From a bacterium (GTDB taxonomy: Bacteria > Patescibacteriota > Patescibacteriia > UBA2196), in the NCBI GenBank assembly GCA_035387885.1, contig DAOOOW010000004.1, positions 1 through 58,162 of the forward strand: DNA of 58,162 nt, read 5' to 3'. Below are positions 6,561 through 49,054 of the stretch, in pieces (the stretch's first letter is position 1; each line of letters opens with the position of its first letter). The position numbers and the translations under genes are program-made. Under the pieces are notes generated by a model. That model ran no database searches, was not told where the DNA came from, and saw only the letters and a program-made list of their open reading frames with translations.

Positions 6561-6567
6561 TTATTTT

Positions 6568-6639
6568 CTCTGGGGGCAGGGATCGAACCTGCGACAGCCA
6601 CGTTAACAGCGTGGTGTTCTACCGCTGAACTACCCCAGA
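6568..6639 (-). tRNA. tRNA-Asn(GUU), copy 1
   Basis: The reverse complement reads TCTGGGG-TA-GTTCAGCGGTAGAAC-A-CCACG-CTGTTAA-CGTGG..GCAGG-TTCGATC-CCTGC-CCCCAGA-G. No CCA is encoded. Confidence 0.9.
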
Positions 6640-6825
6640 GATTAATAAAAAAGATTTAAAAAAACCGTCTTTATAAACGGCCTTTATGTTTCTTTTTAAT
6701 CTATTGAAAATCAGGCCGTTATTAAAAGCGGTTATTAGAATTATTATTTAAATTATTTTTCTGGCTGATTTGTTTCATAGATAAATATAGTTTATCAAGA
6801 AAAAATAAAAAAGTCAAATAAAAAT

Positions 6826-9568: not shown

Positions 9569-9760
9569 GGCTTTTTCCTTTCTTTTTTTGGCCATGTTAA
9601 AAAACACTGACAGAACAATCAACCAGATTGCCTGTCGTTATTTAAAACTCTTTATTTTTATTTTTCCTCCTTATTCTACATTTTCAAAAAACGGCCAACT
9701 TTTGGTAAGCCGCATCTCTTTTAAAAGAACTATATACTATTTTATTTTTTCTGTCAAGAG

Positions 9761-22734: not shown

Positions 22735-23793
22735 TTAACCCTTAAATTTACCAGAAGCTGTAGACACCAATTCTCTTACTTCTAAATTAGAGGCCAGACC
22801 TAAAAAATAAGCTAGGTATTGGGCTAATAAAAGAGTGGAAAAAAACTTTTTAAAAAAATCAGCCTGTTCCATTTTTATGACAACCAGCTGGCTATTTTTA
22901 TTTTGTTTACCTAAAATTTTGACTAAATATTTTATTTTATCTTTGGTATATTGATCATCGCTTTTATCTGCCAAAATAACAGCCCCCAATTTATTTTTGG
23001 CTGAAGAAAAAACAGCGATTTCACAATGAGTAAATTCATGGAAAGAATTTATGTGAGCCGACACTAGGGCTAACTCATTCAAATGCATCACAATAACTTT
23101 TAAAAGCATTAGGTACCATTTGGGTGTGGCCAGAAAAATAAGCTCTCTGTCTTTTAACTTTTTGGCTATTTGTCTAACTTGAGTAATTTTTTGCCCAGTA
23201 AATTCTTTTTTTATGTCTGCTACTGTCTTAATTAACTCTGCTTGATAATTACTCTTAATAATTTTTAACTCATAAAAAATATCAAGTAGTATAACAAAAA
23301 ATTGAGGCACGTGCAGGACAGAATAAATTTCATTAGGATTTTGCAACTGCCAGCTAATTAGAGACACCTTGTCTGTTTGAGCAATTTTTGCCATTTCGCC
23401 TCCAGTAGTTAAAAAAATAATATTTTTTGTCACTTTTTTTATCTGTTCATAAACTTTAAGCGGTTCCACAGAATTGCCACTGAAAGAATTCAAGATAAAC
23501 AAAGTTTGCTGATTTTTTAAGTTTTCATTATCAAGTACATAATTAAGATCATAATCATTAATAACTTCAATTGGCAGGGCAACTTTTTGTTCAATAAAAA
23601 AACCCTTCAGCATTTCAGCAACAATAGCCGAGGCTCCCATGCCTATAAAAACAATTCGTTTAAAGCTCCCCTGTTCAACTTTTTGTCTTAGTTCTGGTTT
23701 GAGATTAGCTAAGGAATAGTCTTTATTTTTGATTAGGCTAGCAAGATATTCTTTTTCAATAAATTGTTGATATTTTTGTAATCTTGGTTGCAT
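22735..23793 (-). CDS. SIS-domain bifunctional phosphoglucose/phosphomannose isomerase-like protein
   Basis: It has two SIS-like halves. The motifs are RIVFIGMGASAIVAEM and FLTTGGEMA. Confidence 0.7.
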   Translation of the reverse strand: MQPRLQKYQQFIEKEYLASLIKNKDYSLANLKPELRQKVEQGSFKRIVFIGMGASAIVAEMLKGFFIEQKVALPIEVINDYDLNYVLDNENLKNQQTLFILNSFSGNSVEPLKVYEQIKKVTKNIIFLTTGGEMAKIAQTDKVSLISWQLQNPNEIYSVLHVPQFFVILLDIFYELKIIKSNYQAELIKTVADIKKEFTGQKITQVRQIAKKLKDRELIFLATPKWYLMLLKVIVMHLNELALVSAHINSFHEFTHCEIAVFSSAKNKLGAVILADKSDDQYTKDKIKYLVKILGKQNKNSQLVVIKMEQADFFKKFFSTLLLAQYLAYFLGLASNLEVRELVSTASGKFKG

Positions 23794-24074
23794 ACTTTCT
23801 TGTTTTTATCTTACCATAAGACAAATCAATAAACAAATATAAAAAACACCAAGTATTGTTAAATCATCACAACCCTTTAAATATACTAAAATTCAAATAT
23901 ACCAATTAAACAATTATAAAAAAATTCTAATCAAAAAAATTCCGACGTTAGTCAGAATTTTTTCTTAAAAAAAGCTCAAACCCACAAAATCCATATTACC
24001 AGTTTGACACCACCACACTCAACTACATAAAAATAAAAATTACCACCTAAACCAAAATCACTTGAATTAATTTT

Positions 24075-25307
24075 CTATCCAAACATCAACCATTCTGGCT
24101 TAAATAATAAAAGTAAACCAATAATTAACATCAAAGCACCACCAATTAATTTTGAATAACGAGAGTATTTGGTGGTAATACCCGTCATCCGTAAAGTAGT
24201 CATGGCCACAAAAAAGACAAATAAATCATCTAGCATGAAAAAGAAAATATAAAGCAAAATATAAAGATAATATTGCCATTTGGCCAAATCACTTAAAGCC
24301 AACACCTGTGTATAGACCGCCGGTAATCCTGCCGAACAAATCAACTCAACTAAATTGACTGCAAAAGCCAAAAGAATAATGCCACCCAAAGCCAACCAGA
24401 AGCTATGCTGTCCAATTATCTTTTTTAATTTTTCAAAAACCTTCTGACGTTTTTCATCATTCGTAACCTTACAACCACTATTTTTATTAAATAAAAATTC
24501 CTTAATATTATACCCACCGCCAAATAAGGCTAGCCCGCCAATTATCACCCGTACCCAAACCACAAAACCTAAAAATAAAATCAAATTCAGCCAAGCGGCC
24601 ATAAAAACGAAATAAACCAAAGCCGAAATAATAATAAAAGCGGTGCCAAGTATCCACATTCTTTTTCTGTCTTGAATGCCCAAAAGTAAACTTATTAAAA
24701 ATAAAAGTGTCCACATGGCGCAAGGATTAAAACCATCTAAAGCTCCCATAGCAACGGTCAAAACAGGTAAAGAAATTTTTTTAATCTCAATATCACCCAA
24801 TAAAGGCAAATTAATTTTTTGTGGTAAGTGGTTGATATTTTCTTCTTGCTCACAGCTTTCTTCACTTAAATTACTATCAATCTGATTAACAATATTCTTA
24901 GGGTCTTGTATTTCTTTAACCACATCACGACAACTACTGACGATTGCTTGCTCAACCGCTTTAGTAATACCTAAGCCAGTAGTTTGTTCATCATACCAAC
25001 CAATAAAATAATTTTCTCCAACTAAAGTAAAAGGCACACCGGAAACATTAATATCTAATTTTTTACCAATAGCAATCAAGAGATTCAAACTGTCTTTATT
25101 TGAACTAATGTCAAAAGCCTGCAATTCAACAGCCGGATTTTGCTTGATTAAATTTTCCAGAAAAGGCCTCTCGCTAGCACAATGCGGACAACCTTGTTGC
25201 CAAAAAAAATAAATATTAATCTTGTTTTGTTCTTGCGCTTTTGCCACGTTTAAAAGCAAAAAACAAGAAAAAAATAAAATTAAAAAAAATAATAAAAATC
25301 TTTTCAT
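24075..25307 (-). CDS. Thioredoxin-fold domain fused to a DsbD_2/CcdA-like 6-TM thiol:disulfide electron-transfer membrane protein (copy A)
   Basis: It has a signal/TM segment, WQQGCPHCA (CxxC), and the TM motifs DGFNPCAMW and ELICSAGLPAVYT. The start is set at MKRFLLFF by analogy with paralog B; the ORF track extends to 25331. Confidence 0.8.
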   Translation of the reverse strand: MKRFLLFFLILFFSCFLLLNVAKAQEQNKINIYFFWQQGCPHCASERPFLENLIKQNPAVELQAFDISSNKDSLNLLIAIGKKLDINVSGVPFTLVGENYFIGWYDEQTTGLGITKAVEQAIVSSCRDVVKEIQDPKNIVNQIDSNLSEESCEQEENINHLPQKINLPLLGDIEIKKISLPVLTVAMGALDGFNPCAMWTLLFLISLLLGIQDRKRMWILGTAFIIISALVYFVFMAAWLNLILFLGFVVWVRVIIGGLALFGGGYNIKEFLFNKNSGCKVTNDEKRQKVFEKLKKIIGQHSFWLALGGIILLAFAVNLVELICSAGLPAVYTQVLALSDLAKWQYYLYILLYIFFFMLDDLFVFFVAMTTLRMTGITTKYSRYSKLIGGALMLIIGLLLLFKPEWLMFG

Positions 25308-25308
25308 A

Positions 25309-25578
25309 TCATTTAGCGCGATTTTGCTCAAGGATCTCTATAATTTTTTTCTTATCTATCTCGCCATTTAAACGCAAAAACTCTTTATCTTGATTGTCCA
25401 GAAAAATAAAGGTAGGCAAAGTCTTAGTAATTTTATATTTTTCCACCATTATTTTGTCATTATCAAAATCATAATACTCTGTTTTAAGCCAAGCATTTTC
25501 TTTTTCAATTTCCTGCCATCTGGGTTTCATAACCAAACACCCCGAACACCAGACAGCGCCAAATTTTAATACTTTCAT
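25309..25578 (-). CDS. Small thioredoxin-like protein
   Basis: 89 aa with KFGAVWCSGC (CxxC) and a Trx-fold length. Confidence 0.8.
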   Translation of the reverse strand: MKVLKFGAVWCSGCLVMKPRWQEIEKENAWLKTEYYDFDNDKIMVEKYKITKTLPTFIFLDNQDKEFLRLNGEIDKKKIIEILEQNRAK

Positions 25579-25592
25579 ATGATTAAAATTAA

Positions 25593-25877
25593 TTATTCTC
25601 CAACTTCTTTTTTAACCTCTTCTCTACCAGCTGCTAATTCTTCAATTTGCTGTCTATCTCTGTTTAATAATAAAGCTTGAAATTCTCCCACGTGAGTCTT
25701 TTCCTCCTTAGCAATATCTAAAAGAATATTTTTAATTTTTTCATCTTGCGCCATGGCCGCCATTTGTTCATAAAGATTAATTGCGTCCAATTCAGCAATT
25801 ACTCCGGCCCTCAATATTTCTAAATCAATATTATTTGAATCAATTTTATCTAAATTAATTGGAATTTGTGATAACAT
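25593..25877 (-). CDS. Two-helix half-ferritin (rubrerythrin/EncFtn-like di-iron motif protein)
   Basis: 94 aa with ..AELDAINLYEQ...(30 aa)...KEEKTHVGEF. This E..Y / ExxH pattern matches encapsulated-ferritin-type half-ferritins. Confidence 0.65.
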   Translation of the reverse strand: MLSQIPINLDKIDSNNIDLEILRAGVIAELDAINLYEQMAAMAQDEKIKNILLDIAKEEKTHVGEFQALLLNRDRQQIEELAAGREEVKKEVGE

Positions 25878-25926
25878 AAATTATAAATTATAAAAAATTA
25901 ATTATTTATAGTTCGACCTTTTGTTT

Positions 25927-27036
25927 TTATATAATTTTTTTACCAATAAACTGCACTGCCAAAAAAGTAGCAATTGGTACTGCTAAAACTAAACCAATAC
26001 TACCAGTAATGGTTCTAACAATTTCTGTGGCGATCATTTCATTTTCTATGACCTGATTGAAAGTCAAAAACGGCGGTTGTTTAACGCTAAACAAAATAAG
26101 CAAAGGCAAAGAGGCGCCAGCATAAGCTAAAAACAATGTGTTAACCATAGAGCTTAAATGAGAAACGCCCACTCTCATGGCCTGACTATATATTTGACCT
26201 TTAGTTAGCTTAGGATTTGATATTTTTAATTCTTGCACTAAAGCCACTTGAGAAATAATTACATCATCCAAAACACCAAGAGCACCAATAATAATACCAG
26301 CGAGCAATAGACCTCTAATATTTATATTACCGCCTTCCATCCCGATTAAATACATTGCTTCCTCGCTGGCAAAACCAGTCAATTTTGTGATGGACGAGAA
26401 CCAAACAGATAAAAGACCAGTAACTATCAAAGAAATTAGGATAGAAAAAATAGCGATGGTAGAAGTTCGTTTGAATCCCTCAGTGATATAAACGGCCAAA
26501 ATTAAAATAAAAAATGAACCAATAATACTAATTGAAAGTGGATTACTACCAGCTAATATTTTAGGAATAATAAATTTTAAAATAGTTAAAAAAGTTAACA
26601 ACAAAACAATTAACGCTCGAAAACCTTTAAAACGACCAACAACTATAACAATTAAAGCAAATAAAAATGCTAACCAAAAAATAGGATTAGCACGAGAATA
26701 ACCAATCACATAAAAATTATCTTCCCCTTCTGGTCCCGGGCTATAATTAACTAAAACTTTTTCTCCAACCGCATATTCACTGGCAGACAAAACATCAAAT
26801 TCCGTACCATCAAAAATAATTTCTTTATCTTTCCAATCATCCTCTAATCCTTTGAGTTTTAGCTTCTGCTGTATTGGCGTTGAACCATCTTCACGTGTCG
26901 AGCTTTTTTGTTCCAAAACTTCAATCACTTTAGCTTTAAATATTTCTTCATCAGTAATATCAAAAATCTGACCAAATGCTGAAATTGGCAATAAAAATAA
27001 AAATAAAAAAATAAATATAAAAAAATTTATTTTCAT
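25927..27036 (-). CDS. YibE/F family integral membrane protein
   Basis: It has a signal peptide, an extracytoplasmic domain and about 7 TM segments. The YibE/F-like C-terminus is GASLPLLILF...NEMIATEIVRT..GSIGLV.AVP. Confidence 0.7.
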   Translation of the reverse strand: MKINFFIFIFLFLFLLPISAFGQIFDITDEEIFKAKVIEVLEQKSSTREDGSTPIQQKLKLKGLEDDWKDKEIIFDGTEFDVLSASEYAVGEKVLVNYSPGPEGEDNFYVIGYSRANPIFWLAFLFALIVIVVGRFKGFRALIVLLLTFLTILKFIIPKILAGSNPLSISIIGSFFILILAVYITEGFKRTSTIAIFSILISLIVTGLLSVWFSSITKLTGFASEEAMYLIGMEGGNINIRGLLLAGIIIGALGVLDDVIISQVALVQELKISNPKLTKGQIYSQAMRVGVSHLSSMVNTLFLAYAGASLPLLILFSVKQPPFLTFNQVIENEMIATEIVRTITGSIGLVLAVPIATFLAVQFIGKKII

Positions 27037-27755
27037 TTTTTGATTATTTTTTGTTCAATTTCTTCTTGGCTTATTTTTTTAGTACAGAAAAACCAGTCAT
27101 AACAATGCATCTCCTCTTTGCTCTCCATGCGATCTTTGGCCACACCGCAAGAACCAGCCGTAGGCACAATAACATCATCACCTGGCCGCCAATCAGCAGG
27201 CAAAGCCACTAAAAATTCATCAGCAGTCTGCATGGCAATTAAAGCACGATACAGTTCATCAAAATTTCTACCTAAACTAAGTGGATAATAAATGATCGCC
27301 CTAATAATACCCTTAGGGTCGATAAAAAATACCGCCCGGACAGCTTTAGTGTTGCTTTCGCCAGGTTGAATCATGCCGTATTTTTGAGCCACTTCCATGG
27401 TGATATCTTCAATAAGGGGAAATTTAACCTCTACGTCCTTCATGCCCTTATATTCAATCTTTTCTTTGATAGTCCTGAGCCAAGCGATATGGCTGTACAA
27501 ACCATCAACCGACAAACCAACCAACTTACAATTAGCGACATTGAATTTTTCTTCCATACTAGCAAATGTCATGAACTCTGAAGTACAAACCGGAGTAAAA
27601 TCAGCCGGGTGGCTGAAAAGAATTACCCAACTTCCCTCATATTGTTTAGGAAAATCTATTTCTCCCTGGGTCGTAACGGCTTTAAAAAAGGGGGCTTTAT
27701 CGCCAATACGTGGCATAGATACTATTGTTGAATTTTCTTGTGTGTTTGTGTTCAT
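27033..27755 (-). CDS. Peroxiredoxin (Prx6/1-Cys-like, AhpC-Prx1 family)
   Basis: Motifs WVILFSHPADFTPVCTSEF and ALPADW.PGDDVIVP. Confidence 0.9.
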   Translation of the reverse strand: MNTNTQENSTIVSMPRIGDKAPFFKAVTTQGEIDFPKQYEGSWVILFSHPADFTPVCTSEFMTFASMEEKFNVANCKLVGLSVDGLYSHIAWLRTIKEKIEYKGMKDVEVKFPLIEDITMEVAQKYGMIQPGESNTKAVRAVFFIDPKGIIRAIIYYPLSLGRNFDELYRALIAMQTADEFLVALPADWRPGDDVIVPTAGSCGVAKDRMESKEEMHCYDWFFCTKKISQEEIEQKIIKK

Positions 27756-27787
27756 AAATTTATTTTAATTAATAATTAATTTACTTT

Positions 27788-28546
27788 TTAATTTATTATT
27801 TTATCAATTATTGATTGGAATACTTGGTTAATATCACAATCTTCGTCTTCTGTTAACGGATAACCCCTGTCGCCGAAAATAACAATTTGGGGATCTATCG
27901 GGATCATTCCTAAAAAAGGAATTTTATAATACTTGGCAATTTTTTCTCCACCGCCTTTCTTAAAAAGATTAGTTATTTCTCCACAACACGGACATTTAAA
28001 ACCACTCATGTTTTCAATTAAACCATAAATCTTTAAATTTAATTTTTTAGCAAAATTTATCGCTTTTTTAGAATCTAATAAAGAGACTTCTTGTGGCGTG
28101 GTGACTATAATTGCTCCAGCTTTAGGTAATAATTGAGCGACTGAAAGTGGTTCATCGCCAGTTCCTGGTGGAGAATCAATTATCAACCAGTCTAAATTGC
28201 CCCATTCTACATCCTTAACAAATCTTTCAATCATCTTCATTTTGGCTGGACCGCGCCAAATAATCGGAGTATCTAAATTTGGTATAAAATAAGCAACTGA
28301 AACCAGGGACAAATTTTTATTTATTTCTATTGGTAAAATACGATTTTCATCATAAGAAAAAATTGCCTTGTCCTGTGCCCCAAGCATTAAAGCTAAATTA
28401 GGACCATGCATATCAGCATCAAGTAATCCGACTTTCAATCCTTTTTTAGTCAAAGCAATGGCTAAATTAACAGCCACAGTTGATTTACCAACTCCACCCT
28501 TACCTGAAAAAATTAATAAATAATTTTTTATTTCATCTTGCTTCAT
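27788..28546 (-). CDS. Mrp/NBP35/ApbC-family Fe-S cluster carrier ATPase
   Basis: Deviant Walker A GKGGVGKSTVA and a CPCCG cluster-ligand motif. Confidence 0.9.
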   Translation of the reverse strand: MKQDEIKNYLLIFSGKGGVGKSTVAVNLAIALTKKGLKVGLLDADMHGPNLALMLGAQDKAIFSYDENRILPIEINKNLSLVSVAYFIPNLDTPIIWRGPAKMKMIERFVKDVEWGNLDWLIIDSPPGTGDEPLSVAQLLPKAGAIIVTTPQEVSLLDSKKAINFAKKLNLKIYGLIENMSGFKCPCCGEITNLFKKGGGEKIAKYYKIPFLGMIPIDPQIVIFGDRGYPLTEDEDCDINQVFQSIIDKIIN

Positions 28547-28632
28547 TTAATTATTTTTATTACCTTGTCATTTATCATAGTGTCTGCATTTTTTTCTAAT
28601 TAGAATATTAAACAATAATCCATAATTATAAT

Positions 28633-28936
28633 CTATTCGGATATATTATATCTTAAACTAATTAATTCTTCAACTTCTTTTTTAATTTCTTCGTATTCAT
28701 CTGCCTGCTCTTTATCTTCATTAAAAAGCAAGATTTGAAATTCCCCTACGTGTTCTTTTTCTTCTTTAACCACAGCTAACAATACTTTTTTAATATTTTC
28801 ATTTTGTGTCAAAGTTACCATTTGTTCATAAAAAATTAATAGCATCTAATTCTGCAATAATACTGGCTCTCAAAATTTCTTTGTCCAAATTTTCTTTATT
28901 AATTTTATCTAAATTTATTGGTAATTATGATAATAT
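28633..28936 (-). pseudogene. Decayed paralog of the half-ferritin gene
   Basis: It is collinear with 25593..25877 but carries three lesions. The start position is ATA, an in-frame TAA lies at 28925-28927 where the paralog has Gln, and there is a +1 frameshift in the A6/T6 run at 28830-28835. Confidence 0.8.
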
Positions 28937-28984
28937 GTTTTTAATTTTAATTTTAATAAAAATTTGCAAAAACCTTTAATATTT

Positions 28985-30226
28985 TTACCCGAACATTAAA
29001 ATTTCGGGTTTAAAAATTAATAATAATCCAATAATTAACATTAATATTCCACCAATTAAATATGACCATTTTGTATATTTAGAAGTTATGCCAGTTACTT
29101 TTAAAGTAATCATGGCTATTACAAAAACAATCAAATCATCAAGCATGAATATTAAAATATATAAAAAAATATATAAATAATACTGAAATTTAGACAAACC
29201 AGTTAAAGTTAAAATTTGTGTGTAAACTGCTGGTAATCCAGCTGAACAAATTAACTCTACTAAATTAACTGCAAAAGCTAATAATATTATTCCCACTAAT
29301 GCAATTCCAAAACTTTTTTGAGTAGTGATTTGTTTTAATTTAGCAAATATTTTTTGCTTCTTTTCTCCGCCAGTCACCTGACATACTCCTGCTTTGTTTA
29401 TAAAATATTCTTTCAGATTATGCCAGCTACATCCAAGTGCAACTATACCAATAATTATTCTAATCCAAAAAACAAAACCAAGAAATAATAACAGATCCAA
29501 CCAAGCTGACATGAAAATAAAATATACAGCAGAAGAAGCGACAATAAATACACTACCCAAAATCCACATTCTTTTTCTGTCTTGCATACCAAGCAATAAA
29601 GTAATTAAAAATAACAATACCCACATGGCACACGGATTAAAACCATCTAATGCCCCAAAAATTATAGTTAAAATTGGCAAGGAAAAATTCTTTACTTCAA
29701 TTTCACCAAATAATGGTAAATCTATTTTTTGAAAAGAATTATCATTATTCTCTTCTTGTCTACATTCATCTTGATTTAAAATATTATTATTTGTGGACGT
29801 AAGGCCAGATATATTGTTTGGATTATTAATTTCTTCAACCACATCTCGACAAACGCCAACCAAAGATTGCTTAAGTTCTTTTTCAATAGCGCTCCCTGTT
29901 GTTTCTTCACTATACCAACCAATAAAGTATTTTTCTCCAATTAAAGTAAACGGCACACCCTGAATATCTATATTTAATTTTTTACCAATATTAATTAATA
30001 AATTTAAACCTTCTTTGTCTGAACTAATATCAAAATCATATAATTCAACTTGTGAATTATTTTTAGCTAAATTTTCTAAAAATGGTTTTTCTTTAGCGCA
30101 ATGCGGACAACCTTGTTGCCAAAAAAAATAAATATTAATCTTGTTTTGTTCTTGCGCTTTTGCCACGTTTAAAAGCAAAAAACAAGAAAAAAATAAAATT
30201 AATAAAAAATATACAATTTTTTTCAT
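28985..30226 (-). CDS. Thioredoxin-fold domain fused to a DsbD_2/CcdA-like membrane protein (copy B)
   Basis: It has the same architecture and motifs as copy A, and the first ~104 nt are identical to copy A. Confidence 0.85.
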   Translation of the reverse strand: MKKIVYFLLILFFSCFLLLNVAKAQEQNKINIYFFWQQGCPHCAKEKPFLENLAKNNSQVELYDFDISSDKEGLNLLINIGKKLNIDIQGVPFTLIGEKYFIGWYSEETTGSAIEKELKQSLVGVCRDVVEEINNPNNISGLTSTNNNILNQDECRQEENNDNSFQKIDLPLFGEIEVKNFSLPILTIIFGALDGFNPCAMWVLLFLITLLLGMQDRKRMWILGSVFIVASSAVYFIFMSAWLDLLLFLGFVFWIRIIIGIVALGCSWHNLKEYFINKAGVCQVTGGEKKQKIFAKLKQITTQKSFGIALVGIILLAFAVNLVELICSAGLPAVYTQILTLTGLSKFQYYLYIFLYILIFMLDDLIVFVIAMITLKVTGITSKYTKWSYLIGGILMLIIGLLLIFKPEILMFG

Positions 30227-30239
30227 ACAATTATATTTT

Positions 30240-30975
30240 TTAAATTAATTTAACCAGCATCATAATAACAATGCCGACGATAAATATTAAAAATGTTGTA
30301 ATCGATCTTTTTATTTTTTCCTGCCTAATTATTTCGGGCATAAGATCAGAAGCAGCAATATAAATAAATCCACCAGCAGCAAAAGGCAATAAATAAGGAA
30401 TTATTTGATAAAGTGGTTGGGCAATAAAATAACCAACCACACCACCCAAAACAACCGTTAAAGCAACTAAATAATTAATTAATAATGCTTTTTTCTTTTC
30501 AAAACCAGCATAAATTAAAACCCCAAAATCGCCAATTTCTTGTGGTATCTCATGCAAAGCAATAGCTAATGTTGTTACTACACCAAGTTTAACATCTATA
30601 AAAAAAAATACTGGCAATCACAAGTCCATCAATAAAATTGTGTAAAGCATCACCCACTAAATTCATATAACCAAAAGTATGAACTTTACATTCACCCTTA
30701 TGGCAGTGTCGCCAATATAACACCTTTTCCATAAAAAAGAAAAAAATAAAAGCAATTAAAACAACTAAATATAAATTATCTGAATTAATTTTACTTGAAG
30801 CCTCGGGCAGTAAATGCAAAAAAGCACCACCCATTAAAGCTCCAGCTGATAGAGCCACTAAAAATAAAGCGATTTTATTAAGCAATTCTTTTTTTAAATA
30901 TAAAAAAATAACTGCTACCCAAACACAAAAAGTAATTAAAAAAGTAGCAATTATAATATTTAATAAAATATTCAT
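30240..30975 (-). pseudogene. ZIP-family (ZupT/GufA-like) metal transporter split by a frameshift in a 9-nt homopolymer
   Basis: The N-terminal ORF ends HNFIDGLVIASIFF. The C-terminal ORF continues IDVKLGVVTTLAIALHEIPQEIGDFG. Deleting one base from the A9 run at 30600-30608 restores a single ~245-aa ZIP protein. Confidence 0.8.
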
Positions 30976-30978
30976 ATT

Positions 30979-31254
30979 TTATTTGATAATTTTTATTGCC
31001 TTGCCTTCAATTATGGCTTGACTAATCTTTTTATATGCTGAAGTTAAAATTCTTTGCAAAGTGCTTTGTGAGGTGTTCATTTTTTTAGCACATTCTATTT
31101 GTTCTAATTCTTCAATATTTTTTAATCGCAAAGCCTCCACTTCTTCATGTGTTAATTCTACTTCTTCCAACATCATTATTGGAATACCTTGAGGTTTAAA
31201 ATAAGTAATATTGGGATTAAATTTAATTCTTCTATTTAATTTTGGCCTAGACAT
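30979..31254 (-). CDS. DUF134 (UPF0251) putative DNA-binding protein
   Basis: 91 aa with P...R.......YFKP.G.P....E.V.L..EE.EA.RL......Q.E.A..M..S..T..R.L..A..K. Confidence 0.8.
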   Translation of the reverse strand: MSRPKLNRRIKFNPNITYFKPQGIPIMMLEEVELTHEEVEALRLKNIEELEQIECAKKMNTSQSTLQRILTSAYKKISQAIIEGKAIKIIK

Positions 31255-32114
31255 ATAACTATTTGTTTAATAATATTTTGAAATATTTTTTTATATTTTT
31301 CATCAATTTCTGTGACTGGTTTCATTTCAAGAGTTGCTTTAACAAAATCTTTATGATAAGGAATTTTGCCAATAATTTGAATGCTATTATCCTTAGCAAA
31401 ATTTTCTATTTTTTTACAAAAATTATCTGATAAACTATACTTATTAATCACAATACCATATTTAATTTGAAAATGTTTGGCTAAATATAATACTCGTTTT
31501 AAATCATGCAAGGCGGAAGGAGTAGGTTCGGTAACAGCGACAATATAGTCAGTACCAACCAATGAAGCGATCACCGGACAGCCGATTCCAGCAGCCGAAT
31601 CTATCAAAATAATCTCGGATTTTAATTTTTTAATAATTTCCTCGGAATGTTTTCTAACTTCAGCCACTACTTCACCAGAAGCTAATTCGCCTAATTTAAG
31701 CTCTCCCAAAATTAAATCTACGCCGTAATTATTACCAGTATAAATTGTGCCTATTTCTTTTTGACTTTCTGAAATAGCGCCATATGGACAAGACACAATG
31801 CAGGCCTTACAGCCAATGCAAATATCTTTGACAAAAACCGGATATTTATTTTTCACAAAAACAATCGCGTTCTGCTTGCAAACAGAAGCGCATTTGCCAC
31901 ATTTTACACATTTATCAAAATCCCACTTTGGGATAACTTGATAAATTGTAATAAATTTTTTCCTTTTAGCGGAAAGCAAGAGATGATCGTTGGGACATTC
32001 AACGTCTAAATCCAATAAAACGGTCTTTTTGCTTTTCGCAAACTCAACTGCGAGCGAAGTGGCGACCATTGATTTGCCCGTGCCGCCCTTTCCGCTGGTG
32101 ACTGCAATTTTCAT
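31236..32114 (-). CDS. MinD/ParA-type P-loop ATPase with an inserted 2x[4Fe-4S] ferredoxin domain
   Basis: P-loop SGKGGTGKS, CVKCGKCASVCKQNAI, and CIGCKACIVSCPYGAI. Confidence 0.9.
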   Translation of the reverse strand: MKIAVTSGKGGTGKSMVATSLAVEFAKSKKTVLLDLDVECPNDHLLLSAKRKKFITIYQVIPKWDFDKCVKCGKCASVCKQNAIVFVKNKYPVFVKDICIGCKACIVSCPYGAISESQKEIGTIYTGNNYGVDLILGELKLGELASGEVVAEVRKHSEEIIKKLKSEIILIDSAAGIGCPVIASLVGTDYIVAVTEPTPSALHDLKRVLYLAKHFQIKYGIVINKYSLSDNFCKKIENFAKDNSIQIIGKIPYHKDFVKATLEMKPVTEIDEKYKKIFQNIIKQIVICLGQN

Positions 32115-32185
32115 AATTATAACAAGTTAAATAATTAAAATAAATTTTTATTTCCCAACTAATAAAATTATATCAATAAGATAAT

Positions 32186-32545
32186 CTAATTTTTATGTTG
32201 TTCACAAGCGTCTTTTATGCCCGCTTTCTTGAATTTATTGTTTTGCCAAAGTTGAAAAAATTCTTTCACATTATTAGCTCCATAAACATAAACATCAATT
32301 CCTAAATTTTGGCATAAATCAATCGCTCGTGGCCCAATATCCCGACACAATAAAATATTTGCTCCGTGTTTTTTCATTAACTCCGGTGGCAAACCAGCTC
32401 CACCCATATGTTCGCTGGTGTTATCTATAATTTCAACTATTTCACCTTTTTCATTAAGAAAAGTATAAGTAAAACAACGACCAAAATGATCGGCTATTTT
32501 AGCATCTAAGCCCTCTTTGTCATTTGTCGGTATAACTAATTTCAT
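32186..32545 (-). CDS. NifB/NifX/NafY-type cofactor-binding domain protein (non-nitrogenase context)
   Basis: It has ~119 aa from MKLVIPT, with HFGR...F........I.........GG.G......L...G...L....IG..A...L...GI. Confidence 0.8.
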   Translation of the reverse strand: MKLVIPTNDKEGLDAKIADHFGRCFTYTFLNEKGEIVEIIDNTSEHMGGAGLPPELMKKHGANILLCRDIGPRAIDLCQNLGIDVYVYGANNVKEFFQLWQNNKFKKAGIKDACEQHKN

Positions 32546-32615
32546 AATTAAAATAAATAAAAAATTAAAATGTATTTTCAATTTCCCAACGAATGAAATT
32601 AGATCTTTTGTCAGA

Positions 32616-32954
32616 CTAATTTATTTTTTTGAGCTTTTTGTCTATAAACGCCCGCAAAACATCTTTGACAATTCCTTCGCCGGAATAAATTTCAATATTA
32701 AATTGATTTAAAACATCCAAAGCCCTTGGACCAACATTATTGGTTATTACTGCGTTAACATTATTTTCCGCCATTAATTGAGCGGCGGAAATTCCAGCTC
32801 CACTAGCTTGATCCGTAGTATCGTTTTTCAAAATTTCTATTTTGTCAACTTTGTTATCTTTTATTTCAACCATAATAAAACACGGACAACGACCAAAAGT
32901 TTCATCAATTTGTCCATCTATTTTTTCACTTGTTGAACTAATTGCAATTTTCAT
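32616..32954 (-). CDS. NifB/NifX/NafY-type cofactor-binding domain protein, second copy
   Basis: 112 aa with the motif TFGRCPCF and the same pattern as 32186..32545. Confidence 0.8.
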   Translation of the reverse strand: MKIAISSTSEKIDGQIDETFGRCPCFIMVEIKDNKVDKIEILKNDTTDQASGAGISAAQLMAENNVNAVITNNVGPRALDVLNQFNIEIYSGEGIVKDVLRAFIDKKLKKIN

Positions 32955-33030
32955 ATTTTTATTTTTTAATTAATATATGATATGGCAAAATCGCTCTACA
33001 AATATTTACAAAATGCAGAGCGTTATTTGC

Positions 33031-33312
33031 TTATTTATTATTACTTTGAAAATCCTTTAAATACTCATTGACGTCCTGTAATTCAGCTTCTAAATCTGAA
33101 ATATATGTTTTGATATTGATGGTTTCTTCATCTTTAGTAAGTTGACGATAACCAACACTGACGCCTCTGCCTAAACCTAAACCACGCTTTAAACCTTTAC
33201 CTAATCCTCTACCAATTCCACGACTATAAGTTTGGCCTCTTTCGCAAGGACCTAAACCCCTACCTGTCATCGGCCCAATACCCTTAGGACCTGTTCCATT
33301 AAATGCAGGCAT
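33031..33312 (-). CDS. DUF5320 family small protein
   Basis: The N-terminus is MP.F.GTGP.G.GPMTGRGLG.C, followed by a Gly/Arg-rich repeat and a C-terminal coiled coil. Confidence 0.75.
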   Translation of the reverse strand: MPAFNGTGPKGIGPMTGRGLGPCERGQTYSRGIGRGLGKGLKRGLGLGRGVSVGYRQLTKDEETINIKTYISDLEAELQDVNEYLKDFQSNNK

Positions 33313-33400
33313 ATAATTACCTTTTAATTACCCATCACAAAATTTACTTATTATAATGGATAAATTTTAATTTATTTGATACGACCTTTGCCTAAGGTTA

Positions 33401-33434
33401 GTGGATAAATGAATAAATATTCATAATTATCCAC
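33401..33434. promoter_or_regulatory. Nested 34-nt palindrome, candidate operator or 5'-UTR hairpin
   Basis: The sequence is GTGGATAA-ATGAATA-AA-TATTCAT-AA-TTATCCAC. It lies just downstream of the predicted promoter. Confidence 0.5.
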
Positions 33435-33446
33435 ACCCTTATTATA

Positions 33447-33475
33447 ATTATATACCCATAATTATATTTTGTCAA
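33447..33475 (-). promoter_or_regulatory. Consensus sigma-70 promoter for the DUF5320-NifX-MinD-DUF134 transcription unit
   Basis: The minus sense reads TTGACA, a 17-nt spacer, then TATAAT. Confidence 0.6.
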
Positions 33476-33559
33476 TTTTGCATAGGTTTTTCTAAATTAA
33501 AAAAAAGCAAATAAAAAATACCTTTACAAAATGATATCTTTACTACCTGCTGTAGACTT

Positions 33560-34090
33560 CTAATAAAAAATAATTTTCGAAGCAGACATCGTGCTAGCTC
33601 GCTTTTTTAATCTATCTTCATCTTCAATCATCATAGCCCCACAACGACCGTCATATCTTTTATACATTTTTTTCATCATACCCTTTCTAACAAAAACATC
33701 ATTAACACCCAAAAAATCAATTAAAAAACCAGCAATTAAAAGTGAAATTATAAATCCAATCACAATTATTAAAAAATTTTTTTTATAAGAAAAATCATAT
33801 TTCTTAAACATACCAACGCCTAATAGTATCCCCAAAACAGCCAAAATAATCGCCCACCAAGGAAAACTAGCCACAATTTGATCATATCTATAGCCACGCA
33901 TATAACCATTAGTCCTCAAAGAAAAAAAAGCAAAGTTGACTAAAAAAATAGTTACCACCAAAATACTAACCAAACCAACAACTGAAGCTACAGAACCAAA
34001 TATAAAATACCACTTTGGCTTCATTTTTATTTGTCCAGATTTAATTCTCTCCATTATTTTTTCTTTAAGGTCTATTTCTTTATTTGACAT
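33560..34090 (-). CDS. Putative membrane-spanning anti-sigma factor
   Basis: It overlaps the ECF sigma stop by 19 nt. A short cytoplasmic N-terminus is followed by 4 TM segments. Confidence 0.55.
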   Translation of the reverse strand: MSNKEIDLKEKIMERIKSGQIKMKPKWYFIFGSVASVVGLVSILVVTIFLVNFAFFSLRTNGYMRGYRYDQIVASFPWWAIILAVLGILLGVGMFKKYDFSYKKNFLIIVIGFIISLLIAGFLIDFLGVNDVFVRKGMMKKMYKRYDGRCGAMMIEDEDRLKKRASTMSASKIIFY

Positions 34091-34617
34091 ATTTTTTTCA
34101 TAAAAATTTTAGCTCGATTAATCCTGGTCCCGACTGTACCCAAGGGAAGCCTCAAAATATCGGCTATTTCATTATAGGATTTTTCTTCCAAAAAATATAA
34201 AGATAATGGTTCCCTGTACAAAATAGGTATTTTATCCAAACAGCTTCTTACTTTTTGAATCATCTCCTGCCGATCAAAATCGGGTTCCGTGCCACCTTCA
34301 CTTCTAATATCAAAGCCTTCCGGCATTTCAACATGTTGCTTATTTTTTTTAATTTCATTAATTGCCTCATTGTGTACAATTCTATAAATCCAGGTCGAAA
34401 ATTTCATCTCTGTTTTAAAACTTTTTAAATTTATAAAAGCCTTAATAAAAGAATTTTGCACAATATCAGCCGCCTTGTCACTATCTTTGGATAAAGAATT
34501 GGCATATCTAAACAATTTTTTCTGATATCTCAAAACTATTTCCGAAAACAATTCCTGGTCTTCTTTGGCGATATATTCAACCAATTGTTCGTCTGATAAC
34601 TGCACAGTATTTTGCAT
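34072..34617 (-). CDS. ECF-type RNA polymerase sigma-70 family factor
   Basis: Region 2 reads D.VQ..FIKAF......F..W.YRI..N. The region 4 HTH reads SY.EIA..L..P.GTV..R..RA. Confidence 0.9.
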   Translation of the reverse strand: MQNTVQLSDEQLVEYIAKEDQELFSEIVLRYQKKLFRYANSLSKDSDKAADIVQNSFIKAFINLKSFKTEMKFSTWIYRIVHNEAINEIKKNKQHVEMPEGFDIRSEGGTEPDFDRQEMIQKVRSCLDKIPILYREPLSLYFLEEKSYNEIADILRLPLGTVGTRINRAKIFMKKICQIKK

Positions 34618-34650
34618 ATATAAATATTACCAATCTAAAAAATAAAAAGC

Positions 34651-34687
34651 AACAAACTCCGGCTTGAGATTACAAGCCGGGTTTGTT
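34651..34687 (-). terminator. Intrinsic terminator after 34698..35102
   Basis: A 15-bp stem (AACAAACCCGGCTTG/CAAGCCGGAGTTTGTT) is followed by a T-run in the minus sense. Confidence 0.75.
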
Positions 34688-34697
34688 TTATTAATAA

Positions 34698-35102
34698 TTA
34701 TCTTGAATAACGCTCATATCCTTGAACTTGACCTTTGCCTTGACTGTGACCAGGCCCAGCTTTTTGCCCACCAACCCTTAAGCCCAATTCTTGTCTTATT
34801 TTGTTGGCCTCTTCATATTTTCCCTGCATAGCCAAATCGTGGGCTTCAGTAAATTTGGCAAAGTTTTCTTGGTTGACAACCTGGTTTACTCGCCCACCCT
34901 TGCCGGCCATCAATTCTTTCCAGGCGGAATAATCTCTGTTTTGAAAGGCACTGGTCATCAAGACGTGTCTTTCTTCTGAATAATTTGGCCCTTTTTGAGT
35001 ATAATCTCCCTGATAGGCCAAAACCTGACTCGCGCCCAGAGCCCCGAACAAGACCGCGAATCCGAGGAACGAAGGCATTAATATTTTTTTATTAATTTTC
35101 AT
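34698..35102 (-). CDS. Small secreted protein of unknown function
   Basis: It has a signal peptide (..GASQVLA) and its own terminator. Confidence 0.6.
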   Translation of the reverse strand: MKINKKILMPSFLGFAVLFGALGASQVLAYQGDYTQKGPNYSEERHVLMTSAFQNRDYSAWKELMAGKGGRVNQVVNQENFAKFTEAHDLAMQGKYEEANKIRQELGLRVGGQKAGPGHSQGKGQVQGYERYSR

Positions 35103-42227: not shown

Positions 42228-42273
42228 AATTAAAAAATCCACCAGCATAAAGTTGATGAGTTTTTTAATTCTC
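42228..42273. repeat. Direct repeat copy 2; it abuts and overlaps by 3 nt the 3' end of tRNA-Asn copy 2
   Basis: See the repeat at 35205-35250. Confidence 0.9.
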
Positions 42274-42342
42274 GGGGACAGGGATTCGAACCCTGGACCC
42301 ACTGGTTAACAGCCAGTTGCTCTACCACTGAGCTATCCCCGA
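42271..42342 (-). tRNA. tRNA-Asn(GUU), copy 2
   Basis: The reverse complement reads TCGGGGA-TA-GCTCAGTGGTAGAGC-A-ACTGG-CTGTTAA-CCAGT..CAGGG-TTCGAAT-CCCTG-TCCCCGA-G. Confidence 0.9.
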
Positions 42343-42378
42343 ATATATGGACAATAAAAAAAGAACGATTTTAATTAG

Positions 42379-47537: not shown

Positions 47538-49054
<1,517 letters not shown>

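Follow-up and report, generated by a model that had tools for sequence, protein, structure and literature searches.

The window analysed here is a 58-kb stretch (58,162 nucleotides) of the genome of a tiny uncultivated CPR (Patescibacteria) bacterium. Its positions 24075-33312 hold a block of 14 genes and two remnants, all on the minus strand; the ORF listing recovers every ORF of the initial annotation, and its genes and remnants lie at the positions given there. Intergenic distances run from -19 to 86 nt, with overlaps and very short gaps between genes. Pfam and NCBIfam bear out the family assignments made earlier, apart from "DsbD_2", which has no HMM or fold support and is replaced here by the name TrxTM. 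In the order of transcription, the features are:

33447..33475, minus: sigma-70 consensus promoter, TTGACA (33475-33470), 17-nt spacer, TATAAT (33452-33447)
33442..33461, minus: candidate operator O1, TTATGGGTATATAATTATAA, overlapping the -10 hexamer; PWM 20.6 bits
33407..33426, no strand given: candidate operator O2, core ATGAATATTTATTCAT; PWM 19.5 bits
33382..33389, minus: 5'-leader octamer AAAGGTCG, immediately 3' of the O2 hairpin
33031..33312, minus: DUF5320 (Pfam PF17253, E 2e-17)
32986..33022, minus: terminator- or attenuator-like hairpin CGCTCTGCA...TGTAGAGCG, then ATTTTG, immediately after the DUF5320 stop codon
32616..32954, minus: NifX-like (orange-protein-like) gene 1 (Pfam Nitro_FeMo-Co, E 1.1e-19)
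32186..32545, minus: NifX-like gene 2 (Pfam Nitro_FeMo-Co, E 8.4e-14)
31236..32114, minus: MinD/CbiA-type P-loop ATPase with an inserted 2x[4Fe-4S] ferredoxin module (MinD-Fer4; Pfam CbiA, ParA and several Fer4 models)
30979..31254, minus: DUF134 (Pfam PF02001, E 1.9e-20), 19-nt overlap with the MinD-Fer4 gene
30240..30975, minus: ZIP divalent-metal transporter, split over two frames, 30589-30975 and 30240-30617, each half matching Pfam Zip
28985..30226, minus: TrxTM_B, with signal peptide, extracytoplasmic Trx domain (CPHC) and six-helix membrane domain
28633..28936, minus: EncFtn-like pseudogene (tblastn against the intact copy; in-frame stop and frameshift)
27788..28546, minus: Mrp/ApbC/NUBPL-type Fe-S carrier ATPase (Pfam ParA/NUBPL, E 3e-93)
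27033..27755, minus: peroxiredoxin, Prx (Pfam AhpC-TSA and 1-Cys Prx C-terminal domain)
25927..27036, minus: YibE/F-family membrane protein (Pfam PF07907, YibE_F, E 3.2e-67), 4-nt overlap with the Prx gene
25593..25877, minus: intact EncFtn-like half-ferritin (Pfam/NCBIfam EncFtn-like, EncB_fam)
25309..25578, minus: small cytoplasmic thioredoxin, Trx (WCSGC; Pfam Thioredoxin, E 1.7e-9), abutting TrxTM_A
24075..25307, minus: TrxTM_A, paralogue of TrxTM_B and last gene of the block (410-aa gene call in locus L001)

Read from its ATG at 32545, the second NifX-like gene encodes 119 aa, and a gene of 119 aa is called in L001. The ZIP gene is split at a T9 run (30600-30608), while L002, another assembly from the window's species, carries T8 and an intact 244-aa gene. 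The EncFtn-like remnant is common to L001-L003; the intact EncFtn-like protein matches the P. furiosus encapsulated ferritin 5n5e in the PDB (1.3e-26), and an encapsulin partner is absent from the window. The peroxiredoxin scores 327.7 bits against NCBIfam PRK13189, above its 211-bit cut-off. The two TrxTM paralogues share 68% identity, and alignment reveals invariant cysteines in the Trx domain, TM1, a Lys-rich loop and TM4 of six predicted helices (in TrxTM_B the membrane-domain motifs are FNPCAMW, CKVT and ELICSAGLP). The membrane domain gives no Pfam match even at E<=5, and both HMM and fold tests fail to place it in DsbD_2, with any relation to DsbD/CcdA undetectable. Because this assignment fails, we can only infer electron export. 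TrxTM is a CPR-specific Trx-anchored membrane protein.

The promoter matches the sigma-70 consensus at 12/12 positions, the sole such match within 23700-33700. The block has no other strong promoter; a 10/12 match lies at 28673-28645, and promoter-like matches as a whole are no more frequent than chance would give (48 against 52.6 expected). A ~20-bp palindrome, T[T/A]ATGGGTATATA[T/C]TCATAA, occurs twice in the promoter, at 33442-33461 and 33407-33426. O2, whose core has one mismatch to ATGAATATATATTCAT, sits within a longer palindrome, GTGGATAA...TTATCCAC (33401-33434), and at the RNA level gives the leader a strong hairpin (-32 kcal/mol, z -4.5). In related loci the adjoining AAAGGTCG octamer forms the conserved loop of a hairpin that covaries; the covariance model R1 has no match in the window. 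With a PWM built from 18 sites of other CPR loci, only two sites of >=10 bits were found in the 58-kb window, both at the promoter. Across 83 loci (1.18 Mb) the scan found 31 sites, spread over 29 loci, in contrast to 1-3 in shuffled sequence. The consensus promoter and palindromic operator that the initial annotation placed at 33401-33475 are both present, and the operator is conserved before DUF5320-DUF134 elsewhere: in other CPR loci TTGACA-N17-TATAAT abuts T[T/A]ATG[GG/AA]TAT[A/G]TA[T/C]TCATAA 5' of DUF5320, and a reciprocal scan anchored on DUF134 found exactly one site in 58 of 80 metagenome loci, always just before the gene pair. The whole unit of promoter, operator and DUF5320-DUF134 is found, once per locus, in 27/80 CPR species and in those 58 metagenome loci, and in Firmicutes in a modified form, where related sites (e.g. 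TTGGGTATATACCCAA) lie beside DUF5320 promoters in three loci.

The two small regulator-like genes of the head unit, DUF5320 and DUF134, recur across more than 100 related genomes. DUF134 is HTH-like, with a weak match to sigma-70/ECF region 4 (3.3e-6) and a profile match to the DeoR N-terminal HTH (6e-5). Its recognition helix covaries with the operator: with Q at the recognition-helix residue the left half-site is GG in 62/74 loci, whereas all 10 loci that have A, H or G there show AA, both counts ignoring kinship. From these patterns we propose that DUF134 is the HTH protein binding the operator. DUF5320 has an invariant N-terminal motif, MPxxxGTGPxGxGxxTGRGxGxC, holding its one invariant cysteine, then a middle part rich in Gly and Arg and a tail predicted to form a coiled coil, and is proposed to be a sensor or co-regulator.

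Beyond the head unit, the order OP-DUF5320-DUF134-cargo-Trx-TrxTM (OP, operator and promoter) is found across several CPR classes, in 27 species. We compared the cargo of TrxTM-anchored loci with DUF134 (28) and without it (52), the species being not phylogenetically independent. With kinship ignored, enrichment alongside DUF134 was significant for small Trx (23/28 vs 8/52), YibE/F (10/28 vs 1/52), Prx (6/28 vs 0/52), NifX-like (6/28 vs 1/52) and ZIP (6/28 vs 2/52), so the co-occurrence that the initial annotation proposed to check holds for these five families. It does not extend to EncFtn (1/28) and MinD-Fer4 (3/28), neither significantly linked to DUF134 in these loci, or to Mrp, present in the cassette of one sister species only; linkage of Mrp and EncFtn is rare. 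Sister species show the orders OP-DUF5320-DUF134-Mrp-YibEF-TrxTM, DUF134-Prx-YibEF-Trx-TrxTM and DUF5320-NifX-NifX-MinDFer4-DUF134-CMD-PEMT-TrxTM. Among 80 DUF134-anchored cassettes, only 25 carry any window-type cargo, 27 end at DUF134 (contig end or opposite-strand gene) and 33 run on into unrelated genes. Cargo in other genomes includes CDF, FeoA, ABC, ArsR and Fur genes, with no iron-specific signal found; no single metal signal fits a cargo that holds importers as well as exporters. With content that differs between genomes, this is better seen as a regulon built of modules than as one multi-protein machine of fixed make-up. The integrated iron, Fe-S and oxidative-damage system first envisaged is partly supported.

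Taken together, the nine-kb block is real and appears to be a single stress operon. We judge it somewhat better than an even chance that this operon serves thiol/peroxide, metal and Fe-S stress, regulates itself and grew to its present size when two cassettes were joined. The reading that competes best, though we consider it unlikely, is that adjacency reflects only a compact, strand-biased genome, with small real units (a self-contained DUF5320-DUF134 regulator pair, NifX-NifX-MinDFer4, Trx-TrxTM, Prx-YibEF) and a Mrp-to-TrxTM_A half under its own promoter. Almost all genes between 20947 and 54272 lie on the minus strand, so co-direction alone is weak evidence for an operon. For the 90 nt past the DUF5320 stop codon the folding energy is -19.8 kcal/mol (z -4.1), and comparable but stronger hairpins follow DUF5320 in 84% of 89 loci; with this hairpin and the 10/12 promoter match, the block could be expressed as separate parts. 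The cassettes that stop at DUF134 or enter unrelated genes, and the unlinked EncFtn, Mrp and MinD-Fer4, point the same way. Against it stand the gene order shared by 27 species, the significant cargo enrichments, the overlaps and very short gaps, and the chance-level frequency of promoter-like matches.

A different wiring of the operon seems improbable. Here DUF5320 or an unlinked Fur- or ArsR-type regulator would bind the operator, and TrxTM would be a DsbA-like oxidase passing electrons inward to Trx/Prx rather than an exporting reductase. Consistent with this, the operator accompanies a lone DUF5320 gene in L169 (Eubacteriales), the basic Gly/Arg region and the coiled coil behind it recall the layout of a bZIP protein, and some cassettes hold Fur and ArsR genes. 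The CPHC motif is that of oxidising DsbA, DSBA is the best weak Pfam match of the Trx domain (0.0029), and the PDB profile search gives DsbA- and ScsC-like chains a high rank. Yet a bZIP-like helix is unlikely to form from Gly-rich segments, the DUF134 recognition helix covaries with the half-site, and in L172, where PadR replaces DUF134 and DUF5320 is retained, the palindrome differs and the TGGGTAT motif is missing. Small Trx lies directly upstream of TrxTM in 31/80 species, which fits either electron direction.

The DUF134/NifX-like/MinD-Fer4/DUF5320 module, initially held to have no assigned function, corresponds to the partly characterised ORP (orange-protein) cluster of Desulfovibrio (PMC6345978, PMC4641369), whose complex composition has been described (PMC6345978). 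NifX-like gene 1 matches MTH1175 (3.5e-21) and the D. gigas orange protein 2wfb (3.3e-10), and the MinD-Fer4 ATPase, matching MinD and polyferredoxin segments in the PDB, has the architecture described for Orp3/Orp4. The single-domain Mrp (CPCC motif) scores 342.7 bits against NCBIfam MrpORP, under the 450-bit cut-off, covering profile positions 2-249 only; Mrp and the NifX-like genes respectively match the two halves of this profile. A Peptococcaceae locus reads Mrp-NifX-MinDFer4-MinDFer4-NifX-DUF5320-DUF134. That DUF5320, NifX-like, MinD-Fer4 and Mrp form a metal-cluster complex like that of Desulfovibrio, linked there to cell division, with the redox and transport genes as passengers, is nevertheless the least probable reading, given that ORP-like genes are optional in CPR (NifX-like 7 and MinD-Fer4 4 among 80 TrxTM-anchored loci) where the recurrent core is DUF5320-DUF134 with Trx-TrxTM, that the sigma-54 promoter and OrpR-type activator are absent here, that only one MinD-Fer4 gene is present, and that ZIP, TrxTM_B and the pseudogene part Mrp from the ORP-like genes.

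In the favoured stress operon, the head unit would comprise the consensus promoter, O1 over the -10 and start, O2 downstream, DUF5320 and DUF134. A DUF134 dimer on the palindrome would shut off the promoter, its own gene included, with DUF5320 as its redox-, metal- or cluster-sensing partner, and the hairpin after DUF5320 would lessen read-through into the downstream genes. Once released, the operon would supply a thiol relay from cytoplasmic Trx through the TrxTM membrane cysteines to the extracytoplasmic CPHC domain, together with a peroxiredoxin, the metal transporters ZIP and YibE/F, the ferroxidase EncFtn, and the Fe-S carriers Mrp, MinD-Fer4 ATPase and NifX-like proteins. The form in the window is unusually large; ORP-like genes would have been added and two cassettes joined, a joining that would account for the two TrxTM paralogues and for an EncFtn pair in which one copy is dead. 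The recurring promoter and operator with DUF5320 and DUF134 thus offer a testable role for genes that have gone unstudied.

The block consists of the minus-strand genes between 24075 and 33312, beginning with DUF5320 and ending with the Trx-membrane gene TrxTM_A. ORF calling recovered on the minus strand exactly the ORFs listed in the initial annotation, and Pfam and NCBIfam bore out its family labels, the membrane "DsbD_2" label excepted. The families comprise DUF5320, two Nitro_FeMo-Co (NifX-like) proteins (Pfam E 1.1e-19 and 8.4e-14), a CbiA/MinD ATPase with an inserted 4Fe-4S pair (MinD-Fer4), DUF134, ZIP in two frames, Mrp/NUBPL, YibE_F, an EncFtn-like half-ferritin, a small thioredoxin and a peroxiredoxin (NCBIfam PRK13189, score above cut-off). 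The two Trx-membrane genes, TrxTM_A (24075-25307) and TrxTM_B (28985-30226), are paralogues with 68% identity. Intergenic distances within the block range from -19 to 86 nt. Because nearly every gene from 20947 to 54272 lies on the minus strand, the co-direction of the block alone says little. The block reads as two joined cassettes, and a promoter scan gave a 10/12 match at 28673-28645 that could serve its second half.

Cassettes and operator copies of the block
Cassette 1: [O1/O2]-DUF5320-NifX-NifX-MinDFer4-DUF134-ZIP-TrxTM_B
Cassette 2: (dead EncFtn)-Mrp-Prx-YibEF-EncFtn-Trx-TrxTM_A
O1, 33442-33461: palindrome copy overlapping the -10, found by weight matrix
O2, 33407-33426: palindrome copy inside the initially annotated palindrome at 33401-33434, found by weight matrix

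Several genes of the block are broken. The EncFtn remnant (28633-28936) carries one stop and one frameshift, and ZIP is frameshifted at a T9 homopolymer (30600-30608). The species has another assembly, L002 (GCA_964498445.1), which matches the block at 99.9% identity but has T8 at this position and an intact ZIP of 244 aa, while its YibE/F is broken by a 34-bp deletion (window 26082-26115). Each assembly has a different broken transporter, which could reflect strain-level decay, phase-like variation or assembly error. We also observed that the spacers upstream of MinD-Fer4 (32109-32174) and of the second NifX-like gene (32540-32605) are direct repeats with 76% identity, both including GTTGGGAAAT, probably the trace of a tandem duplication.

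Outside the block, the window is an ordinary low-GC CPR chromosome with RpoD, DnaG, RuvB, QueA and a single 16S gene, and its nearest named relatives are Candidatus Kuenenbacteria. The 16S rRNA gene (47538-49054) stands alone on the plus strand with minus-strand genes around it; 23S and 5S gave no match anywhere in the 58-kb window, and the rRNA operon therefore appears unlinked. A 915-aa ORF at 6875-9622 with a Por_Secre_tail (T9SS-type C-terminal sorting) domain lies within a stretch of raised GC (0.43 versus about 0.33), adjoins one of two tRNA-Asn(GTT) copies (6567-6640 and 42270-42343) and may have been acquired horizontally.

The promoter and palindrome annotated at the head of the block were confirmed: a 12/12 sigma-70 match lies at 33475-33447 and is the only one in 23700-33700. 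Within the window by itself, the exact 16-mer, allowing up to three mismatches, was no commoner than chance predicts (1 match versus 1.56 expected). The evidence for the putative operator is its conservation across genomes, not the count in a single window. In a first set of 80 loci, taken from GTDB species genomes with the Trx-membrane protein as anchor and nearly all from CPR, the region upstream of DUF5320 carries TTGACA-N17-TATAAT with the palindrome T[T/A]ATG[GG/AA]TAT[A/G]TA[T/C]TCATAA abutting it. A weight matrix built from 18 such sites found 31 sites in 29 of 83 loci (1.18 Mb), compared with 1-3 in shuffled sequence, and across the 58-kb window just two sites reached 10 bits, both of them at the block promoter. 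In a reciprocal set of 80 further loci, drawn from metagenomes with CPR-type DUF134 as anchor, 58 have exactly one operator site, always directly 5' of DUF5320-DUF134. The arrangement expected of autoregulation is thereby found, namely a palindrome on the promoter of the operon encoding a candidate DNA-binding protein, conserved across genomes.

The candidate DNA-binding protein, DUF134, is HTH-like, with matches to sigma-70 region 4 and to the DeoR N-terminal HTH. We aligned 108 DUF134 proteins (loci L004-L163) and compared the recognition helix with the operator. The helix residue after TF/TY correlates with the left half-site: Gln goes with GG in 62/74 loci, and Ala, His or Gly with AA in 10/10, these statistics ignoring kinship. 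Its partner DUF5320 has the motif MPxxxGTGPxGxGxxTGRGxGxC, with one invariant Cys, kept across CPR, Firmicutes and archaea and followed by a Gly/Arg-rich stretch and a coiled coil. Two Firmicutes DUF134 paralogues (L167:6943-7392 and L167:6590-6940) bear Cys-rich C-terminal extensions with several CxxC. This extension is absent from all CPR DUF134 proteins, and sensing may therefore have moved in CPR from DUF134 to DUF5320. Both families occur widely among anaerobic bacteria and archaea and are almost missing from the literature, where our search for DUF134/UPF0251/COG1342 returned passing mentions only.

Related sites occur beyond CPR. A Peptococcaceae ORP-like cluster (ORP, Desulfovibrio orange protein) carries TTGGGTATATACCCAA 3' of the -10 of its DUF5320 gene, and in two further Firmicutes loci TATGGGCATA-type sites lie on either side of the promoter. 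At one locus where PadR replaces DUF134, the palindrome is a different one and the TGGGTAT motif is absent. At three Firmicutes DUF5320 promoters (L167:5930-5990, L169:5920-5970 and L173:4925-4985) we noted one copy that overlaps or abuts the -35 (TTGACATAT[A/G][C/T]CCA) and an inverted copy after the -10 (TGGG[T/C]ATA...); the DUF5320 gene of L169 has no adjacent DUF134. A separate observation concerns L054:7520-8610, in which an operator with a consensus -35 immediately precedes a CDF (Cation_efflux) gene and no DUF5320 gene intervenes. At its C-terminus the encoded CDF protein has a Gly/Arg stretch and a CxCPxC...CPxC ribbon, and a similar CxCPxC-type ribbon ends the NifX-like-labelled ORFs just upstream of DUF134 in L021 and L072.

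Two structured RNA elements accompany the operator unit. About 40% of CPR DUF5320-DUF134 operons have a structured 5' leader directly after the operator, in which a hairpin with a stem of 5-8 bp and covarying arms closes a loop ending in (A)AAGGUCG (L004:7175-7210, L109:7061-7098, L133:167-203 and 18 other loci). A covariance model, R1, found 21 instances in 0.94 Mb, every one at the leader position; in its alignment 92.7% of cells are paired and 6/7 pairs show changes on both sides, a result reached by 0/500 shuffles. Leaders with the hairpin have no Shine-Dalgarno near the ATG, whereas those without it have GGAGGTGA. In the window, the leader keeps the octamer (33382-33389) but not the hairpin. 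The second element, a very stable two-tier hairpin, lies 3' of the DUF5320 gene in 84% of 89 loci (e.g. the 90 nt beyond the stop codon in L051, L110, L125 and L138), with a sequence-conserved outer stem AAGAAGGC/GCCTTCTT, a covarying GC-rich inner stem and then a T-run. Its median folding energy, computed over 90 nt, is -28 kcal/mol (z -4.2), and RNAalifold gave 16 pairs, 9 with compensatory changes. The window has a hairpin with a U-run immediately 3' of DUF5320 (33022-32986), much weaker than those of the related loci. A simple terminator scan gave counts not above chance and missed the long-loop hairpin after DUF5320. Neither element matched Rfam, either over the whole window at the gathering threshold or over the block and eight related loci at E<=1. 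The post-DUF5320 hairpin suggests attenuation between DUF5320 and downstream genes such as DUF134.

We then compared the genes that travel with the unit. In 27/80 TrxTM-anchored species the order is [operator]-DUF5320-DUF134-(YibE/F, ZIP, Prx or NifX-NifX-MinDFer4)-Trx-TrxTM, all co-directional. Fisher tests contrasted 28 TrxTM-anchored loci with DUF134 and 52 of similar length without it.

Co-occurrence of gene families with DUF134 in TrxTM-anchored loci (family: with DUF134; without DUF134; Fisher p)
DUF5320: 27/28; 0/52; 1.8e-20
Small Trx: 23/28; 8/52; 5e-9
YibE/F: 10/28; 1/52; 7e-5
Prx: 6/28; 0/52; 0.0013
NifX-like: 6/28; 1/52; 0.0065
ZIP: 6/28; 2/52; 0.019
MinD-Fer4: 3/28; 1/52; 0.12
EncFtn: 1/28; 0/52; 0.35
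Neighbouring ECF sigma gene (control): 2/28; 4/52; 0.69

The co-occurrence check proposed in the initial annotation thus came out in favour of Trx, YibE/F, Prx, NifX-like and ZIP (p<=0.019), but not of MinD-Fer4 (0.12) or EncFtn (0.35). Sister species show the orders DUF134-Prx-YibEF-Trx-TrxTM, DUF5320-DUF134-Mrp-YibEF-TrxTM and DUF5320-NifX-NifX-MinDFer4-DUF134-CMD(AhpD-like)-PEMT-TrxTM. Cargo of the window type occurs in only 25/80 DUF134-anchored metagenome cassettes; other genes right behind DUF134 encode ArsR, Fur, FeoA, an ABC ATPase, CNNM/CorC, a P-type ATPase or a SAM methyltransferase, and an archaeal locus has OsmC together with DUF5320 and DUF134. Clustering of the genes behind DUF134 gave no dominant family, the biggest cluster having 5 members. 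What these genes share is a link to thiol/peroxide chemistry and to the handling of transition metals, Fe-S/ORP genes being optional, and the DUF5320-DUF134 unit is modular, with no fixed machine. Of the integrated iron/Fe-S system initially proposed, what stands is an operator unit with thiol/peroxide, metal and NifX-like cargo; the fixed machine does not, the content being modular. Judged from sequence, the block is best read as a stress operon for thiol/peroxide, metal and Fe-S functions, autoregulated and modular, under a putative DUF134/DUF5320 operator unit.

Just upstream of the block (33560-35102) lies a trio encoding a 134-aa protein that looks secreted, an ECF sigma factor and a membrane protein of 176 aa, possibly an anti-sigma factor. 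The trio recurs beside the cassette or TrxTM in several species (L164:5596-7119, L026, L030), with no association to DUF134 (2/28 versus 4/52 loci).

TrxTM has more than 6,800 homologues, nearly all in CPR, in hundreds of species, with 45-77% identity over the full length. Its invariant cysteines are C40/C43 (CPHC), C199 (FNPCAMW), C282 (CKVT loop) and C327 (ELICSAGLP). The predicted models comprise a signal peptide, a Trx-fold domain and six helices, and place C199 and C327, unchanged in 37 sequences, in TM1 and TM4, so that the models would give TrxTM the DsbD/CcdA arrangement of one Cys in each of these two helices. By the positive-inside rule, we infer that the Lys/Arg-rich loops, including that of C282, are cytoplasmic and the Trx domain is outside. 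The initial "DsbD_2" assignment of the membrane domain was not upheld, as neither HMM, PDB sequence-profile nor Foldseek searches linked it to DsbD/CcdA, and the label was set aside, although the models are only of moderate confidence. Against Pfam the membrane domain matched nothing at E<=5; the membrane part of the homologues carries no Pfam domain, and a precomputed DsbD domain is on none of the 120 homologues listed. A PDB profile search at E<=10 returned only Trx, DsbA and ScsC folds, and Foldseek with the full-length model only Trx folds. The membrane-only model (mean pLDDT 66.7) had no PDB match better than E 1.5, its quality being too low to exclude a CcdA/DsbD fold.

A transmembrane thiol relay is consistent with how the cysteines are arranged and with the cytoplasmic Trx gene next to TrxTM. 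Like the DsbD/CcdA/ScsB relays (PMC3322552, PMC2631958), TrxTM tethers an extracytoplasmic Trx-fold domain to a polytopic membrane domain with one conserved Cys in each of TM1 and TM4 and, as with those relays, a cytoplasmic Trx gene adjoins and a peroxiredoxin lies in the same neighbourhood. It differs in having matched DsbD, CcdA and DsbD_2 neither by sequence nor by fold (the models being of moderate confidence), in a third invariant Cys in a predicted cytoplasmic loop, in a DsbA-like CPHC active site, and in being an almost CPR-confined family whose membrane part has no Pfam model. Because CPHC is the DsbA active-site motif, electrons could pass through TrxTM in either direction. Literature searches on YibE/F gave nothing useful, and those on CPR thiol systems nothing specific.

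The initial annotation had taken the DUF134/NifX-like/MinD-Fer4/DUF5320 module to be without an assigned function. Instead, the NifX-like, MinD-Fer4 and Mrp genes of the block, and putatively DUF5320/DUF134, correspond to the Desulfovibrio ORP cluster (PMC6345978, PMC4641369). In D. vulgaris Hildenborough this cluster spans DVU2103-DVU2109, with Orp3, Orp4, Orp5, Orp8, MrpORP/Orp9 and the regulator OrpR (PMC6345978). Both sets combine, clustered in an anaerobe, a NifX-like orange-protein domain, a MinD-type ATPase with two [4Fe-4S] motifs, an Mrp/NBP35-type carrier and a small Cys-containing protein. Of the two NifX-like genes in the block, the first matches D. gigas ORP 2wfb at 3.3e-10, and a Firmicutes locus has the full ORP set beside DUF5320 and DUF134. 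The block has one MinD-Fer4 gene (31236-32114) whereas the ORP cluster has two (Orp3, Orp4); the second is present in L039 and L167. The block Mrp has the deviant Walker A GKGGVGKS and CPCC in its translation and a Pfam ParA/NUBPL match at E 3e-93, as in Mrp/ApbC/NBP35. As MrpORP it was rejected: it reaches 342.7 bits in NCBIfam against a cut-off of 450 bits and aligns only to profile positions 2-249, because the C-terminal NifX-like domain is missing. The C-terminal part of that profile is matched by the separate NifX-like genes of the block. Control also differs, with a sigma-70 consensus and palindromic operator in the block against sigma-54 with OrpR and IHF in the ORP cluster, and Pfam found no enhancer-binding-protein gene of the OrpR type in or next to the block. 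In CPR the ORP set is optional cargo behind DUF5320-DUF134, and in the block it is incomplete and split.

EncFtn matches P. furiosus 5n5e at 1.3e-26, with EEKTHVGEF aligned to EEKAHVGEF in the EEKxH segment. This strong similarity to the EncFtn of P. furiosus and Rhodospirillum rubrum includes the ferroxidase-centre segment. The block protein differs from encapsulated EncFtn in standing alone at 94 aa with no obvious targeting tail, and its second copy is a pseudogene; no encapsulin/Linocin_M18 shell gene was matched among the scanned ORFs of the 58-kb window.

In autoregulated peroxide/metal regulons, e.g. that of Bacillus subtilis PerR, the operator sits on the promoter of an operon containing the regulator gene, and the cargo mixes thiol peroxidase, ferritin-like ferroxidase and metal transporters. 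By analogy, the logic of the block most resembles such regulons, sharing the operator over the promoter and the peroxidase, ferroxidase and metal-transporter cargo. The block differs in its candidate regulator, DUF134 with DUF5320 and no Fur-family protein, and in its even-length palindrome (16-20 bp) as opposed to the 7-1-7 Fur/PerR box.

A broader reading, which we put forward tentatively and regard as rather doubtful on the whole, is that DUF5320 and DUF134 form a new regulator family widespread in anaerobes, with DUF5320 as a small Cys-bearing coiled-coil sensor and DUF134 as a minimal HTH protein. Four points taken together would define it. The operator, with the core TGGGTAT/ATACCCA, would be common to CPR and Firmicutes; the regulator would govern the ORP genes together with a thiol/metal stress regulon of variable content; in CPR two non-Rfam RNA elements, the AAAGGUCG-loop leader hairpin and the two-tier attenuator, would have been added; and the most frequent target, TrxTM, would be a new CPR-wide thiol-relay family unrelated to DsbD, CcdA, DsbB and VKOR.

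The conserved promoter-operator site tied to DUF134/DUF5320 makes a function for two DUFs testable and gives a first lead on ORP-cluster control outside Desulfovibrio. CPR bacteria have few recognisable regulators, cannot be grown alone and are mostly anaerobic epibionts. TrxTM may be the main thiol-disulfide system of their cell surface, and a defined thiol/peroxide/metal stress regulon would help explain how CPR bacteria cope with shifts in oxygen and metals.
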